A stretch of DNA of 64,000 nt from NCBI RefSeq assembly GCF_058153355.1, contig NZ_JBLWLY010000002.1; one strand, 5' to 3'. Below the pieces are notes generated by a model that made no database searches, was not told where the DNA came from, and saw only the letters and a list, made by a program, of their open reading frames with translations. Of the stretch, positions 2,089-49,288 are shown piece after piece (position 1 is the first letter of the stretch; every line of letters starts with the position of its first letter). The position numbers and the translations under genes are program-made. This stretch comes from a plasmid.

Positions 2089-3156
2089 ATGCTTGATGTT
2101 AAAAATACAGGAGTTTTTAGCTCTGCATTCATTGATAAGTTGAATGCAATGACAAATTCAGATGATGGAGATGAGACTGCTGATGCAGAGCTTGATTCTG
2201 GCTTGGCTAATAGCAAGTATATTGACTCATCTGATGAGATGGCTTCCGCTCTTTCGTCATTCATAAACAGAAGAGACCTTGAGAAACTGAAAGGAACAAA
2301 TAGTGATAGTCAGGAGCGTATTTTAGATGGGGAAGAAGATGAAATTAATCACAAGATTTTTGATTTAAAGAGAACTTTAAAAGATAACCTTCCTCTAGAT
2401 CGGGATTTTATAGACAGACTAAAGAGATATTTTAAAGATCCAAGTGATCAAGTCTTAGCATTAAGGGAACTTTTGAATGAAAAAGATCTTACTGCTGAAC
2501 AAGTCGAATCATTAACTAAAATTATTAATGAGATAATATCAGGTAGTGAAAAAAGTGTTAATGCTGGAATAAATTCAGCTATACAGGCTAAATTATTTGG
2601 CAACAAAATGAAACTTGAACCACAGCTTTTGCGTGCATGTTATCGTGGTTTTATCATGGGGAACACATCAACAACAGATCAGTATATAGAATGGCTTGGT
2701 AATTTTGGTTTTAATCACAGGCATACAATTGTGAATTTTGTAGAGCAGTCACTGATTGTAGACATGGATTCTGAGAAACCGAGCTGTAATACTTATGAGT
2801 TTGGTTTTGTGTTATCTAAATTAATTGCAATTAAGATGATTAGAACTTCAGACGTAATTTTTATGAAGAAACTGGAATCCTCAAGCTTGCTAAAAGATGG
2901 CAGTTTAAGTGCAGAGCAGCTATTGCTAACTTTATTATATATTTTTCAATATCCAAGTGAAAGTGAGCAAATTCTTACTTCTGTTATAGAAGTATCACGA
3001 GCCAGTCATGAGGATTCTGTAGTGTATCAAACATATCTATCTTCTGTTAATGAAAGTCCTCATGATATATTTAAAAGTGAAAGTGAAAGAGAAATTGCGA
3101 TCAATATTCTACGAGAGCTTGTCACAAGTGCATACAAGAAAGAGCTTTCTAGATAA
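2089..3156 (+). CDS. mxiC: T3SS gatekeeper (SctW; InvE/MxiC family)
   Basis: 355 aa between secretin and SctV genes; size and position match MxiC. Confidence 0.85.
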   Translation: MLDVKNTGVFSSAFIDKLNAMTNSDDGDETADAELDSGLANSKYIDSSDEMASALSSFINRRDLEKLKGTNSDSQERILDGEEDEINHKIFDLKRTLKDNLPLDRDFIDRLKRYFKDPSDQVLALRELLNEKDLTAEQVESLTKIINEIISGSEKSVNAGINSAIQAKLFGNKMKLEPQLLRACYRGFIMGNTSTTDQYIEWLGNFGFNHRHTIVNFVEQSLIVDMDSEKPSCNTYEFGFVLSKLIAIKMIRTSDVIFMKKLESSSLLKDGSLSAEQLLLTLLYIFQYPSESEQILTSVIEVSRASHEDSVVYQTYLSSVNESPHDIFKSESEREIAINILRELVTSAYKKELSR

Positions 3157-3162
3157 CAGGAG

Positions 3163-5229
3163 ATGAAAGTGATCCAGTCTTTTCTTAAGCAAGTAAGTAC
3201 TAAGCCTGAATTAATTATATTAGTGCTTATGGTTATGATCATTGCTATGTTGATCATACCATTACCTACATACCTTGTTGATTTTTTAATAGGGCTTAAT
3301 ATTGTACTTGCTATTCTCGTTTTTATGGGATCATTTTATATTGAAAGAATATTGAGTTTTTCTACATTCCCTTCGGTTTTGTTGATAACGACATTATTTC
3401 GTCTCGCTTTATCAATAAGTACTAGTCGGCTAATTTTAGTTGATGCGGATGCGGGTAAAATTATTACTACATTTGGCCAGTTTGTCATTGGTGATAGTCT
3501 GGCTGTAGGTTTTGTTATTTTTTCAATAGTAACTGTTGTGCAGTTCATTGTTATAACAAAAGGATCTGAAAGGGTTGCGGAGGTAGCTGCTCGCTTTTCT
3601 CTTGACGGTATGCCGGGGAAACAAATGAGCATTGATGCGGATTTAAAGGCTGGAATTATTGATGCCGCAGGAGCTAAAGAAAGACGCAGTATTCTGGAAC
3701 GTGAGAGTCAATTGTATGGTTCATTTGATGGAGCAATGAAGTTCATTAAAGGTGATGCAATTGCTGGCATCATTATTATTTTTGTCAATTTAATAGGAGG
3801 TATTTCTGTTGGTATGAGTCAACATGGAATGTCCCTATCTGGTGCATTATCTACTTATACCATACTAACTATTGGTGACGGATTGGTCTCTCAGATTCCT
3901 GCTCTGTTAATTTCTATAAGTGCAGGATTTATCGTTACAAGAGTTAATGGTGATAGCGATAATATGGGACGTAACATAATGTCCCAGATATTTGGGAATC
4001 CTTTTGTTCTCATTGTTACATCAGCTCTTGCCTTGGCGATAGGGATGTTGCCAGGTTTTCCGTTTTTTGTTTTTTTCCTGATAGCAGTTACTTTGACGGC
4101 TTTATTCTATTATAAAAAGGTCGTAGAAAGAGAAAAAAGTCTGTCTGAGTCTGATTCTAGTGGCTATACTGGTACATTTGATATTGATAATAGCCATGAC
4201 TCATCTTTGGCAATGATAGAAAATCTGGATGCTATTAGTTCAGAAACCGTTCCTTTAATTTTATTATTTGCCGAAAATAAGATAAATGCAAATGATATGG
4301 AAGGGCTTATTGAAAGGATAAGAAGTCAGTTCTTTATTGATTATGGTGTCAGGCTTCCAACTATTTTATATAGAACAAGCAATGAGCTTAAGGTTGACGA
4401 TATTGTTTTGTTAATAAATGAGGTGCGTGCCGATAGTTTTAATATATACTTTGACAAAGTATGTATTACAGATGAAAATGGAGATATAGATGCTCTAGGT
4501 ATTCCTGTTGTTCCAACTTCATATAATGAACGTGTTATTTCTTGGGTAGACGTTTCATATACAGAAAATCTAACTAATATTGATGCTAAAGTTAAAAGCG
4601 CTCAAGATGAATTTTATTACCAGTTGTCACAAGCTTTATTAAACAACATAAATGAGATTTTTGGCATACAAGAAACAAAAAATATGTTAGATCAGTTTGA
4701 AAATCGGTATCCTGATCTTTTAAAGGAAGTCTTCCGACATGTGACTATACAGAGAATATCTGAGGTATTACAAAGATTGCTTGGAGAAAATATTTCTGTT
4801 CGCAATTTAAAACTTATTATGGAGTCTTTGGCGCTTTGGGCTCCCAGAGAAAAAGATGTCATAACATTAGTTGAACATGTCCGTGCATCACTTTCTAGGT
4901 ATATTTGTAGTAAAATAGCCGTTTCTGGTGAGATTAAAGTTGTGATGCTTTCCGGATATATTGAGGATGCAATAAGAAAAGGGATAAGGCAAACCTCTGG
5001 TGGCTCTTTCTTGAATATGGACATAGAGGTTTCGGATGAGGTAATGGAAACTTTAGCACATGCTTTGAGAGAATTGAGAAATGCAAAAAAAGATTTCGTT
5101 CTTTTGGTATCAGTAGATATACGTAGGTTTGTTAAAAGACTTATAGATAACAGATTTAAGAGTATACTCGTTATATCGTATGCTGAGATTGATGAAGCAT
5201 ATACCATTAATGTATTGAAGACTATTTAG
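3163..5229 (+). CDS. mxiA: T3SS export apparatus major subunit (SctV; InvA/MxiA)
   Basis: 688 aa; N-terminal polytopic membrane domain; FSLDGMPGKQMSIDADLKAG motif typical of the FlhA/SctV family. Confidence 0.92.
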   Translation: MKVIQSFLKQVSTKPELIILVLMVMIIAMLIIPLPTYLVDFLIGLNIVLAILVFMGSFYIERILSFSTFPSVLLITTLFRLALSISTSRLILVDADAGKIITTFGQFVIGDSLAVGFVIFSIVTVVQFIVITKGSERVAEVAARFSLDGMPGKQMSIDADLKAGIIDAAGAKERRSILERESQLYGSFDGAMKFIKGDAIAGIIIIFVNLIGGISVGMSQHGMSLSGALSTYTILTIGDGLVSQIPALLISISAGFIVTRVNGDSDNMGRNIMSQIFGNPFVLIVTSALALAIGMLPGFPFFVFFLIAVTLTALFYYKKVVEREKSLSESDSSGYTGTFDIDNSHDSSLAMIENLDAISSETVPLILLFAENKINANDMEGLIERIRSQFFIDYGVRLPTILYRTSNELKVDDIVLLINEVRADSFNIYFDKVCITDENGDIDALGIPVVPTSYNERVISWVDVSYTENLTNIDAKVKSAQDEFYYQLSQALLNNINEIFGIQETKNMLDQFENRYPDLLKEVFRHVTIQRISEVLQRLLGENISVRNLKLIMESLALWAPREKDVITLVEHVRASLSRYICSKIAVSGEIKVVMLSGYIEDAIRKGIRQTSGGSFLNMDIEVSDEVMETLAHALRELRNAKKDFVLLVSVDIRRFVKRLIDNRFKSILVISYAEIDEAYTINVLKTI

Positions 5230-44200: not shown

Positions 44201-44872
44201 CGTAATTACATTCATTTAAAAAGAAAGCCTATTCACTGCCTGTCCTGTGGACAGACAGATATGCACCTCCCACCGCAAGCGGCGGGCCCCGACCGAAGCC
44301 ATCTTAGTTACAACACTCAAACACAACCACCAGAAAAACCCAAGTCCAGCGCAGAACTGAAACCACAAAGCCCCTCCCTCATAACTGAAAAGCGCCGCCG
44401 CCCCGGCCCAAAGGGCCGGAACAGAGTCGCTTTTAATTATGAATGTTGTAACTAAGCATCATCATCGCTGTCAGTCTTCTGGCTGAAAGTCCTCAGTACA
44501 CGCTCGTAAGCGGCCCTCACGGCCCGCTAACGCGGAGATACGCCCCGACTTCGGGTAAACCCTCGTCGGGACCACTCCGACCGCGCACAGAAGCTCTCTC
44601 ATGGCTGAAAGCGGGTATGGTCTAGCAGGGCTGGGGATGGGTAAGGTGAAATCTATCAATCCGTACCGGCTTACGCCGGGCTTCGGCGGTTTTACTCCTG
44701 TGCCATATGCAACAACGGAGTGCCGCCTTCCATGCCGCTAACGCGGCATCAAAAAATCCCTCTTCTCCAGTGCCCCCCTCCGAACTCAGAGTGTATTTTC
44801 ATTTATTGATGAAATTTACTGTTTGCGCAATTTTCCTGTTTTAGTGTATTTTGTCATTCTGGAGGCTATAAT

Positions 44873-45184
44873 ATGTTTAATGTGATTACTCACCCGGCCG
44901 CACTGGATGAACTTCTGGAATTACCAGACAATCTGCGTGGTCGTATGACCAGACTGATTGAACGGCTGGAACAGGAAGGTAACAAAATGAAAATGCCTCA
45001 CAGCCGTGTAATTGGCGGAGGGCTTTTTGAACTGAGAGTCGGGGATAAAAATATCGCAAGGACACTGTACGCTTATGCAACGGGTAACGAAATCTATCTG
45101 CTGCATGCATTTGTGAAAAAAACGCAAAAGACACCAACGAAAGCTATTGAAATTGCCAGGATGCGTCTGAAGGAGATGAACTGA
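44873..45184 (+). CDS. Type II toxin, HigB/RelE-like (Gp49-like family)
   Basis: 103 aa; toxin-first gene order with a 1-bp overlap to an HTH antitoxin gene. Confidence 0.6.
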   Translation: MFNVITHPAALDELLELPDNLRGRMTRLIERLEQEGNKMKMPHSRVIGGGLFELRVGDKNIARTLYAYATGNEIYLLHAFVKKTQKTPTKAIEIARMRLKEMN

Positions 45185-45471
45185 TGAAAGTAAAAGGTGT
45201 TCCATTCAGCCAGGTAAAGCAAAAACTACTCAGTACTCCAGAAGCTGTCAAAGGGTATGAGGATGCTGACAAAGAACTGGAGATGGTGGAAATGTTATAC
45301 GAAATGAGAGAAAAAGCGGGATTAACAAAGTCAGCACTGGCCGAACGAATGGGGTTACGCCCGTCAGCCATCAGTCGCCTGGAAAGTAACCCTTTAGGGG
45401 CCAGCATGAAAACTTTGACAAAATATGCTCATGCCTGTGGCGCAACCATCGATATTCACGCTGTCTATTGA
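45184..45471 (+). CDS. HTH (XRE-family) antitoxin, HigA-like
   Basis: 95 aa with helix-turn-helix segment ..LTKSALAERMGLRPSAISRLE.. Confidence 0.6.
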   Translation: MKVKGVPFSQVKQKLLSTPEAVKGYEDADKELEMVEMLYEMREKAGLTKSALAERMGLRPSAISRLESNPLGASMKTLTKYAHACGATIDIHAVY

Positions 45472-45756
45472 GGGGGCCGCTTGGAATTCGGAAAATAAAC
45501 CACGTTAAGACTATTTTTTAGACAAATGACTTTCAGGAATCGCCAAGATGGCGGGATAACAGCGGTTTTGGTGTCCGAAATCGTACAATTCTGTACATCC
45601 ACGAAAGGGAATGTACGGAAGTAAGCCAGACGGTTATCGGACGGTAAGAACATTTCGTACAGCCTTTACGTTCAGTGAGTTAGCTGGCCTGGACGTAACC
45701 ACTCGTTAACTCAATTCTCTTAGCGTGGGAAAATTTCCGAATTCCAAGCGGACCCC
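45472..45756. mobile_element. Tn3-family-derived miniature inverted-repeat element (TIME-like), 285 bp, bounded by two 38-bp Tn3-type IRs
   Basis: GGGGGCCGCTTGGAATTCGGAAAATAAACCACGTTAAG at 45472..45509 and its near-perfect inverted copy at 45719..45756; no ORF inside; no 5-bp TSD. Confidence 0.6.
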
Positions 45757-46029
45757 TTTATCCTTGCCCCGCTGAATGAGGAAACGCTGTTCCGGGGGAT
45801 TATGCTGAACGTCTTCCGTTCACGGTACTGCTGGACGATGTGGCTGGGTGCGCTGATAACGTCGTTGTTGTTCGTCGCCGCGCACAGCCAGTATCAGAAC
45901 CTGCTGACCCTGGCAGAACTGTTCCTGGTGGGGGTGATTACATCAGCGGCCAGGATCAGAAGTGGTGGCCTGCTGCTGCCGGTATTGCTGCATATGGAAG
46001 CAACCGCGCTGGGTTTACTGTTTGGTTGA
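45757..46029 (+). pseudogene. CPBP-family (CAAX/Abi-like) membrane protease, 3' fragment
   Basis: ..EETLFRGIMLNVFRSRY..AAHSQY.. motifs; gene begins abruptly at the miniature element boundary. Confidence 0.55.
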
Positions 46030-46121
46030 CAGTTATATTTTTATTAAACATTGCGCGTTAAAGCCTGGTGTGTTTTTTTAGTGGATGTTATATTTAAATA
46101 TAACTTTTATGGAGGTGAAGA

Positions 46122-46379
46122 ATGCATACCACCCGACTGAAGAAGGTTGGCGGCTCAGTTATGCTGACCGTCCCACCGGCACTGCTGAACGCGCTGTCTC
46201 TGGGTACAGATAATGAAGTTGGCATGGTCATTGATAATGGCCGGCTGATTGTTGAGCCGCACAGACGCCAGCAATATTCACTGGCTGAGCTACTGGCACA
46301 GTGTGATCCGAATGCTGAAATATCAGCTGAAGAACGAGAATGGCTGGATGCACCGGCGACTGGTCAGGAGGAAATCTGA
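46122..46379 (+). CDS. pemI: PemI/Kis antitoxin (copy A)
   Basis: 85 aa MHTTRLKKVGGSVMLTVPPALLNALSLG..; matches R100 PemI as I recall it. Confidence 0.85.
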   Translation: MHTTRLKKVGGSVMLTVPPALLNALSLGTDNEVGMVIDNGRLIVEPHRRQQYSLAELLAQCDPNAEISAEEREWLDAPATGQEEI

Positions 46380-46380
46380 C

Positions 46381-46713
46381 GTGGAAAGAGGGGAAATCTG
46401 GCTTGTCTCGCTTGATCCTACCGCAGGTCATGAGCAGCAGGGAACGCGGCCGGTGCTGATTGTCACACCGGCGGCCTTTAATCGCGTGACCCGTCTGCCT
46501 GTTGTTGTGCCCGTAACCAGCGGAGGCAATTTTGCCCGCACTGCCGGCTTTGCGGTGTCGTTGGATGGTGTTGGCATACGTACCACAGGTGTTGTGCGTT
46601 GCGATCAACCCCGGACAATTGATATGAAAGCCCGGGGCGGAAAACGACTCGAACGGGTTCCGGAGGCTATCATGAACGAAGTTCTGGGCCGCCTGTCCAC
46701 TATTCTGACTTGA
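46381..46713 (+). CDS. pemK: PemK/Kid (MazF-family) toxin (copy A, GTG start)
   Basis: 110 aa (V)ERGEIWLVSLDPTAGHEQQGTRPVLIV..; start is GTG here but ATG in copy B. Confidence 0.85.
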   Translation: MERGEIWLVSLDPTAGHEQQGTRPVLIVTPAAFNRVTRLPVVVPVTSGGNFARTAGFAVSLDGVGIRTTGVVRCDQPRTIDMKARGGKRLERVPEAIMNEVLGRLSTILT

Positions 46714-46978
46714 ACATGGGGGGGTGCCCCTATTAAGTTGTCAAGCATGTTATGACCCCTGCGGGGTATAAAAAGTCCCGTCGCGCATCATGGCGAACAG
46801 AACGTCGCAGCGTCGTCTCGCCAGGGCGATAAGCGCCTGATTGTGTCGTTTTCCCTGACTCATTTTGCGGGTGTAGTAAGCCCTGGAGAGCGGATCCCTG
46901 AGCGCGGCGAAGGCCGACTGTCAACGCCACGATTTTTAACCGTTATTTGCCATTTTCATGCCCGCTAAGATACTTTCG

Positions 46979-48948
<1,970 letters not shown>

Positions 48949-49288
48949 GTTGATGTCCTTTCTGGTGTGGGAACCTTAAGGAAACAACATGTTGGGTGGA
49001 GCGGACAATCCAAATGGCGAATTACCGTCTTATATCACTGGCGCTGACACACAGCCAGTATCAGAACCTGCTGACACTGGCAGAACTGTTCCTGGTGGGG
49101 GTGATTACATCAGCGGCCAGGATCAGAAGTGGTGGCCTGCTGCTGCCGGTATTGCTGCATATGGAAGCAACCACGCTGGGTTTACTGTTTGGTTGAAAGT
49201 TATATTTTTATTAAACATTGAGCGTTAAAGCCTGGTGTGTTTTTTTAGTGGATGTTATATTTAAATATAACTTTTATGGAGGTGAAGA

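Follow-up and report, generated by a model that had tools for sequence, protein, structure and literature searches.

A 285-bp gene-less element at a plasmid backbone junction, probably a miniature derivative of ISSba14-family Tn3 transposons

We analyzed a 64,000-nucleotide stretch of plasmid DNA (contig NZ_JBLWLY010000002.1 of NCBI RefSeq assembly GCF_058153355.1; the whole stretch is called the window here) for a 285-bp feature at positions 45472..45756 that has facing terminal inverted repeats (IRs) and no transposition gene. With a probability of roughly 0.8, we read it as a Tn3-derived inverted-repeat miniature element (TIME), i.e., a non-autonomous derivative of ISSba14-family Tn3 transposons that kept the two ends and the resolution site (res) of its parent and would be moved by a helper. 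The element is complete, is bounded by the IRs, and has no assigned strand. Its anatomy, its homology to the parent, its conservation pattern, its spread over contexts, and the structure of its junctions can be observed directly, while we infer that it is mobilized in trans, that a resolvase acts on its res, and in what order this locus was shaped.

Two 38-bp IRs bound the element. The left one (IRL, 45472..45509, plus strand; GGGGGCCGCTTGGAATTCGGAAAATAAACCACGTTAAG) is the presumed binding and cleavage end for the transposase TnpA, and the tip of the right one (IRR, 45719..45756, minus strand; GGGGTCCGCTTGGAATTCGGAAATTTTCCCACGCTAAG, shown reverse-complemented) coincides precisely with the breakpoint to the IncFII plasmid backbone. 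The two repeats agree at 32/38 positions across a spacing of 209 bp, a repeat search stretches the arms to 45 nt with 82% complementarity and a gap of 197 nt, and a degenerate Tn3-type terminus pattern matched the window once, against 0.00 matches expected (100 shuffles). Directly inside IRL lies a subterminal segment (45510..45525, plus strand; ACTATTTTTTAGACAA) that aligns with the subterminal sequence of ISSba14 and is 85% conserved across genera. The sole open reading frame (ORF) of the element is a minus-strand frame of 62 amino acids (aa), in a region that carries indels among homologs, and tblastn of the entire 64-kb window found no match to Tn3-family TnpA or to the resolvase TnpR. A first-pass annotation, made from the letters alone, had placed two facing 38-bp IRs at these coordinates without a transposase or resolvase gene between them, and both points hold. 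It had also typed the termini as Tn3/Tn21, which needs narrowing: they are of the Tn3 family, but nearest to the ISSba14 family and not to Tn3 or Tn21 themselves. TIMEs are recognized by a size of ~50-500 bp and the lack of a transposase or resolvase gene; besides its 285-bp size and gene-less interior, the element has Tn3-type IRs of ~38 bp (GGGG...ACGYTAAG), an autonomous relative with matching ends, and multiple copies in unrelated contexts.

Relatives were sought by scanning one genome per species with the degenerate IR pattern, yielding 27 loci, nearly all in Enterobacterales. Seven of these (six distinct; two are duplicate assemblies) are full-length or near-full-length homologs of 275-289 bp at 69-75% identity, from Xenorhabdus (two), Cedecea, Citrobacter, and uncultured Enterobacterales. 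At other scan loci, in Pantoea, Vibrio furnissii, and Xenorhabdus bovienii, the matching terminus closes off a Tn3-family transposon; an Enterobacteriaceae metagenome-assembled genome (MAG) has a partial autonomous copy, and Symbiopectobacterium has degraded ones. Behind the IR of the Pantoea sp. IMH copy come a DDE_Tnp_Tn3 transposase (994 aa) and a divergent resolvase (197 aa), and TnpA segments from Vibrio furnissii, Xenorhabdus bovienii, and the Enterobacteriaceae MAG are 96-99% identical to the Pantoea TnpA. The named relative is ISSba14 (an ISfinder name, here the PGAP product name) on Shewanella baltica plasmid pSBAL11703, a 3,815-bp transposon whose 38-bp IRs are perfect and whose parts run IR-tnpA(reverse)-res-tnpR-IR. 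IRL and IRR match the ISSba14 IR at 32/38 and 34/38 positions and that of the Pantoea copy at 31/38 and 35/38 (IRR being the 35/38); ISSba14-family IRs (31-35/38) thus fit the element better than those of any named TIME (at most 30/38).

The kinship extends beyond the termini. Positions 1-92 of the element correspond to transposon positions 1-100 of ISSba14, positions 101-202 to 3064-3165 (the tnpA-tnpR intergenic region), and positions 200-285 to 3729-3815, and from this collinear mapping onto both ends and res the element looks like a double-deletion derivative that retained them. ISSba14 and the miniature are alike in their termini (32-34/38), their homologous subterminal sequences, and their collinear res, and differ in that ISSba14 is autonomous, encoding the 994-aa TnpA and a ~196-aa TnpR, whereas the miniature has neither gene. 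Judging from these sequences, the ISSba14 lineage is the likely source and helper of the miniature.

By homology and architecture, the interior is a predicted res. Compared with the intergenic regions of three autonomous copies, it gave Smith-Waterman scores of 117, 120, and 154, which none of 500 shuffles reached (~56, standard deviation ~9), and its score against unrelated Tn3-type res was at noise level. Six miniatures and three parental res regions align over ~120 columns free of internal gaps, and three blocks stand out. Block I (45572..45597, plus strand) is a 26-bp dyad and putative crossover site, TGTCCGAAATCG-TA-CAATTCTGTACA, centered at 45584-45585, with an arm symmetry of 8/12 here and 9-10/12 in autonomous relatives, where random 26-mers average 3.0 and reach at least 8 with P=0.003. 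Block II (45612..45643, plus strand) spans 32 bp and its dyad is partly decayed, and block III (45650..45674, plus strand) is a 25-bp conserved block collinear with one beside the parental tnpR start codon. Between E. coli-type and diverged miniatures, identity is 0.90 in IRL, 0.85 in the left subterminal segment, 0.76, 0.74, and 0.75 in blocks I, II, and III, and 0.84 in IRR, compared to 0.23 in the spacer between blocks I and II and 0.55-0.56 in the other interior.

The element is widespread. A megablast search of PLSDB found a match in 2,150 records, 552 of them near full length and most of them Escherichia, Klebsiella, Shigella, and Salmonella plasmids. Any match is present in 1,491/5,426 complete E. 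coli genomes (27%) and a copy covering at least 80% in 528 (~10%), and a metagenome scan added 67 loci. Plasmids and metagenomes together gave 22 distinct flank combinations; among the contexts are colicin Ia (pO113), the ColV region, a Col plasmid of 5.6 kb, and a plasmid of the IncP type. Nearly all sampled RefSeq/PLSDB copies lie under no annotated feature, and a few under a hypothetical protein only. This recurrence of a ~285-bp structure in 22 flank combinations, together with the 69-75% identical full-length copies in other genera, bears out the earlier suggestion of a non-autonomous Tn3-family miniature.

We envisage the following course. An ISSba14-like transposon would have lost the bodies of tnpA and tnpR, retaining one IR with ~55 subterminal bp, the res region of ~105 bp from between tnpA and tnpR, and the other IR with ~45 bp. 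A helper TnpA of the ISSba14 type, acting in trans, would recognize both 38-bp IRs and carry out replicative transposition into A+T-rich pentanucleotides, and the cointegrates could then be resolved by the cognate serine resolvase at the res that was kept. Where the helper resolvase is absent or transposition is intramolecular, the outcome would be replicon fusions, deletions, and inversions, and in such products each copy would join two DNA segments never contiguous before. The window copy, an inert orphan since no TnpA or TnpR is encoded in the 64 kb, would sit at such a junction, between a toxin-antitoxin module and a truncated CPBP protease gene. IRs and res without genes are also the architecture of the accepted miniatures IS101 and TIME244 (PMC13367494).

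Several junctions carry signs of movement. One Xenorhabdus copy has the 5-bp duplication ATTTA on both sides. A+T makes up 84% of the 5 nt next to each end, versus 44% of the 10 nt beyond them; A+T-rich junctions are the target signature expected of Tn3-family transposition. Two collected loci, L054 and L073, share a left flank and carry elements one single-nucleotide polymorphism (SNP) apart, and from precisely the IRR tip onward their right flanks differ. At L089, the IRL tip of a ColV-type copy is fused to a left flank that belongs to another context. Both cases point to fairly recent, terminus-precise events, typical of transposase action.

We acknowledge a series of observations that weigh against transposition as the source of these copies or against a working res. 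First, the 5-bp target duplication that a simple Tn3-family insertion should leave was found in 0/22 E. coli-type flank combinations, and the window copy is flanked by ATTGA and TTTAT, without duplication. Empty sites were equally elusive: for the ColV context (left flank IncF backbone, right flank cvi module), the search returned occupied sites or single flanks only; none of seven predicted empty sites, composed from flanks of different contexts that share a 5-mer, exists in the collected loci or PLSDB, and the sharing is therefore chance among A+T-rich pentamers; and a chimeric query for insertion into an intact CPBP gene (CPBP...TTTAT joined to IRL) had no spanning match among 4,475 matching PLSDB records. 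The check for duplications and empty sites that the first-pass annotation had proposed thus yielded the Xenorhabdus duplication and nothing in E. coli-type contexts. Second, copies from one context differ from those of another by 5-12%, which makes most insertions old. Third, the arm symmetry of block II is 5/12 here versus 7-8/12 in diverged miniatures and 9/12 in parent transposons, and a dyad and half-site search of block III gave no clear dyad, sequence features suggesting that res may be partly decayed in E. coli-type copies. In addition, experimental mapping of the ISSba14 res was not found in the literature, the label being given from the tnpA-tnpR position and architecture. Finally, a search for a site I crossover in the recombinant L089 was negative, the switch of parents lying instead at the IRL tip or in the first 57 bp. 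The pair L050 and L100, which share a right flank and differ at 7 sites in positions 1-97 and 2 in positions 98-285, is at most compatible with a site I crossover. Partial-copy breakpoints do not cluster consistently at the site I center: a few fall at positions 115-119 and the others are scattered, and the partial copies downstream of pemK that end at 115-119 are fusions to a gamma-delta-type IR.

Much of this would also suit a miniature that is immobile in Escherichia/Shigella, its distribution reflecting ancient insertions reshuffled by transfer, homologous recombination, and IS-mediated deletions, a possibility that we take seriously but consider unlikely. The missing target duplications, the divergence between contexts, and the decayed symmetry of site II are in keeping with it, as are the truncation of many copies by other elements, the L050/L100 mosaic, which is consistent with homologous recombination, and the scarcity of helpers: an ISSba14-type copy covering at least 80% occurs in 59/5,426 complete E. 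coli genomes, the miniature being ~9x commoner, and most miniature copies are orphans with no helper. Yet an immobile fossil would not readily give the L054/L073 and L089 junctions, or IRs and res blocks far better conserved than spacers across genera, and helper copies do exist on E. coli plasmids as well as on many Klebsiella and Enterobacter plasmids (PLSDB), making trans-mobilization plausible. The near-total lack of target duplications is nevertheless unusual and only partly explained; in our main reading, most copies would sit at junctions left by non-simple products of replicative transposition (unresolved fusions and intramolecular deletions or inversions) and by later recombination.

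That the sequence serves the host plasmid, e.g., as the site at which a plasmid resolvase would resolve multimers, as a regulatory RNA, or as a promoter or terminator of pemIK, is very improbable. The res-like interior, an RNA fold z-score of -9.2, and partial copies ~1 kb upstream of a serine recombinase gene in some IncFII plasmids could be taken that way; however, the fold energy stems from pairing of the two terminal IRs, the element has no Rfam match and no promoter- or terminator-like site, and an RNA or regulatory role was rejected on these findings. As for multimer resolution, no resolvase is encoded in the window, the interior scores at noise against the res beside the IncFII recombinase, and bounding Tn3-type IRs and many unrelated contexts are unexpected for a backbone site. 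Least credible of all is that a full-length transposon between the antitoxin and CPBP genes lost its interior at this locus, as the first-pass annotation had also entertained: an ISSba14-like transposon is indeed the origin of IRs and interior, and no target duplication flanks the window copy, but the 285-bp form recurs with the same internal deletion junctions in 22 flank combinations, and the 275-289-bp forms of Xenorhabdus, Cedecea, Citrobacter, and uncultured Enterobacterales accompany it, so the deletions are older than this locus and the element is a deletion derivative in the historical sense only. That annotation had named as counter-evidence to a miniature the ends of a known full-length transposon around a residual res; such a family and such an interior were indeed found, but the deletion did not happen here.

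If the element is a TIME that usually lacks its helper resolvase, fusions, deletions, and inversions would persist unresolved, and one might tentatively go further and see in it an overlooked major junction-maker of IncF, ColV, and pINV-type plasmids, its transposition products left unresolved, although we regard this extension as doubtful. Were it true, copies would systematically mark boundaries between backbone and accessory modules (e.g., the toxin-antitoxin module against the pem region here, and the IncF backbone against the colicin V operon elsewhere), and the persistence of unresolved products would account for the lack of target duplication in E. coli-type copies. Miniature Tn3 derivatives are rarely annotated, and the prevalence of near-full-length copies in complete E. 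coli genomes (~10%) exceeds that reported for any named TIME, with criteria that differ between the counts. Recognizing the element would explain puzzling breakpoints in IncF, ColV, and Shigella/enteroinvasive E. coli (EIEC) virulence-type plasmids, including the truncated CPBP gene here, and would provide annotators with a module-boundary marker and studies of ISSba14-type transposases with a candidate res/IR substrate. The kind of element, a TIME, is already known, and no new kind of mechanism is revealed.

Among named miniatures, the enterobacterial TIMEs listed in PMC13367494 are only IS101, IMU, MITESen1, and TIME244/MITEEc2, and we compared the element to the reference sequences of that work (Table S2, Gomi and Yano 2026). 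Identity with any of the four was rejected, the IRs agreeing at only 18-30/38 positions and the interiors scoring at shuffle level. The nearest analog in design is IS101 in its relation to gamma-delta. This 209-bp TIME of pSC101, which comes from gamma-delta/Tn1000, likewise consists of two Tn3-family 38-bp IRs around a retained res, is gene-less, and presumably acts in the same mode, its parent supplying transposase and resolvase in trans (PMC13367494); it differs in its unrelated sequence (IRs 18-20/38, interior at shuffle level) and in its parent, gamma-delta versus the ISSba14 family. TIME244/MITEEc2 (244 bp, Tn21-type res) is also plasmid-borne in enterobacteria, with IRs matching at 23-29/38, and its res, too, is putative and inferred from similarity to that of its parent (PMC13367494). 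Its interior is unrelated and its parent belongs to another subgroup, and its known occurrences are in composites with resistance genes and flanking direct repeats, whereas no copies of the 285-bp element were seen on either side of resistance genes and direct repeats hardly ever occur around it. IMU, the 288-bp integron mobilization unit, comes close in length, gives the best IR match of any named TIME (IMU IRL, 30/38), and has as its parent ISSod9, also a Shewanella Tn3-family element, but its interior is unrelated and no res was detected in it (PMC13367494). It is rare, in 0.06% of RefSeq Enterobacteriaceae genomes versus ~10% of complete E. coli genomes for the element, the counting criteria being different. 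The IR strings were not found in the literature open to searching, and papers on ISSba14 describe no miniature derivative. The element is absent from the ISfinder list of enterobacterial MITEs (miniature transposable elements with inverted repeats) as enumerated in PMC13367494 and hence appears to be unnamed, though it may be present, without a name, in large MITE catalogs.

At its locus in the window, the element follows a Gp49-family toxin gene (44873-45184, plus strand; Pfam PF05973, E 1.3e-28) and an HTH antitoxin gene (45184-45471, plus strand; HTH_3/HTH_37), and precedes the 3' remnant of a CPBP (Rce1-like) protease gene (45757..46029, plus strand; Pfam PF02517, E 1.6e-16) that keeps the C-terminal 90 aa. 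The antitoxin stop codon TGA (45469-45471) directly adjoins IRL, and the right tip adjoins CPBP codon ~127, the remnant aligning with the canonical IncFII CPBP gene from nt ~380. The abutment of antitoxin stop and truncated CPBP gene on the two IRs, which the first-pass annotation had noticed, holds. Relative to the canonical IncFII order repA-CPBP-pemI-pemK (pNDM5-IBAC and R100-type plasmids), window positions 44750-45755, i.e., toxin, antitoxin, and element, stand in place of 469 bp of backbone, made up of ~90 bp upstream of CPBP and the first 380 nt of CPBP, and homology to the repA-CPBP-pemIK backbone resumes exactly at the IRR tip. With no target duplication, this agrees with the earlier view that an arrival or a deletion shaped the locus. 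Plasmids of the EIEC/Shigella type have these junctions as well.

Other IncFII plasmids carry the toxin-antitoxin module at 91-92% identity up to its stop codon and then unrelated DNA, with no element. Three IncFII lineages (window 45471; L014 2425; L015 3179) share the segment from repA to the antitoxin at 91-92%, with homology ending exactly at the antitoxin stop; beyond this breakpoint, each enters different DNA, and the element is found in the window lineage only. Gp49/HTH pairs are known within Tn3-family transposons beside res (PMC7157771). Here the pair lies outside the IRs and is therefore not counted as part of the element; a role as its passenger was rejected, the module also occurring without the element in other IncFII plasmids.

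Remnants of related copies lie nearby. An isolated 27-nt copy of element positions 91-117 (50722..50748, plus strand; 26/27 identity), downstream of parR, comprises the left arm and center of res block I plus 10 upstream nt, and sits at a homology breakpoint, the neighboring backbone matching other plasmids from exactly 50749. The first-pass annotation had seen this 27-bp motif recur at 50721..50747; the recurrence is real, and its position is one base off. A second, weaker 27-nt remnant (23/27) lies on the opposite strand at 49913-49939, and just downstream of the second pemK is a chimeric remnant (49885..49953, minus strand) in which a gamma-delta/IS101-type IR (49885-49922) is fused to element positions ~81-115 in diverged form. 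In canonical IncFII plasmids, a longer form downstream of pemK has element positions 7-115 and a gamma-delta-type IR, and the left-interior segment is matched (~82% identity) in roughly 1,900 PLSDB records. In pNDM5-IBAC (L011 3963-4112) and R100 (NC_002134.1), this is a ~150-bp chimera lying 7 bp after pemK, with a diverged IRL and positions 7-115 of the element family joined to the gamma-delta/IS101-type IR. The stretches 49885-49953 and 50722-50748 are scars of other copies.

Composite and intermediate forms were also seen. Two family members in direct orientation, 91.6% and 78% identical to the window copy, lie ~4 kb apart at L054 2696-7284 (metagenome contig Ga0192273_1084). Between them are colicin-like and ParA-like genes and a serine recombinase of 214 aa, which ends 7 bp before the second copy, and this arrangement is composite-like (TIME-COMP-like). 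A 746-bp relative with the same IR type on a Citrobacter freundii IncHI1B plasmid (CP078021.1; L012 5439-6184), 71% identical from res to IRR, carries a 122-aa ORF without Pfam match between IRL and res and is possibly a passenger-bearing intermediate.

At L007, L083, L068, L091, L078, and L009, copies have around them nested or fused termini of various Tn3-family elements. For example, in the IncFII plasmid pHNEC46 (L007 4160-4260), a MITESen1-like IR and a second IRR fragment come directly after a truncated copy, and among the left ends of L083, L068, and L091, the right flank of L078, and the left flank of L009 are hybrid copies with a different left IR (GGGGAAATGCTTAGGAAAAGG...), one copy whose insertion point lies 15 bp within a gamma-delta IR, and one directly abutting an IS101-type IR. 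Solo IRs occur at L003 7940-8038 (NZ_CP146683.1) and L002 8001-8045; in this set, a solo IRR lies directly against an IS21 end, and a solo IRL with ~7 bp lies inside an annotated hypothetical protein gene beside a ProQ/FinO gene. In the right flank of L057 and in PLSDB hits H312 and H319-H324, the right end of the element lies within the yacB gene (RelE/ParE-family toxin), a second abutment on a toxin-antitoxin system that may be coincidental.

Further downstream, the window has two copies of the CPBP tail, pemI, and pemK (45883-46721 and 49050-49888, 98% identity), with an IS21 copy (istB/istA, 46979-48948) between them, and the two sequences downstream of pemK diverge at 46721/49888, at the first G's of the gamma-delta-type IR. 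Finally, parM (51350-52283, minus strand) is split into two overlapping ORFs of 254 aa and 100 aa, both matching ParM/StbA Pfam domains; the split reflects either a frameshift in a pseudogene or an error in sequencing.

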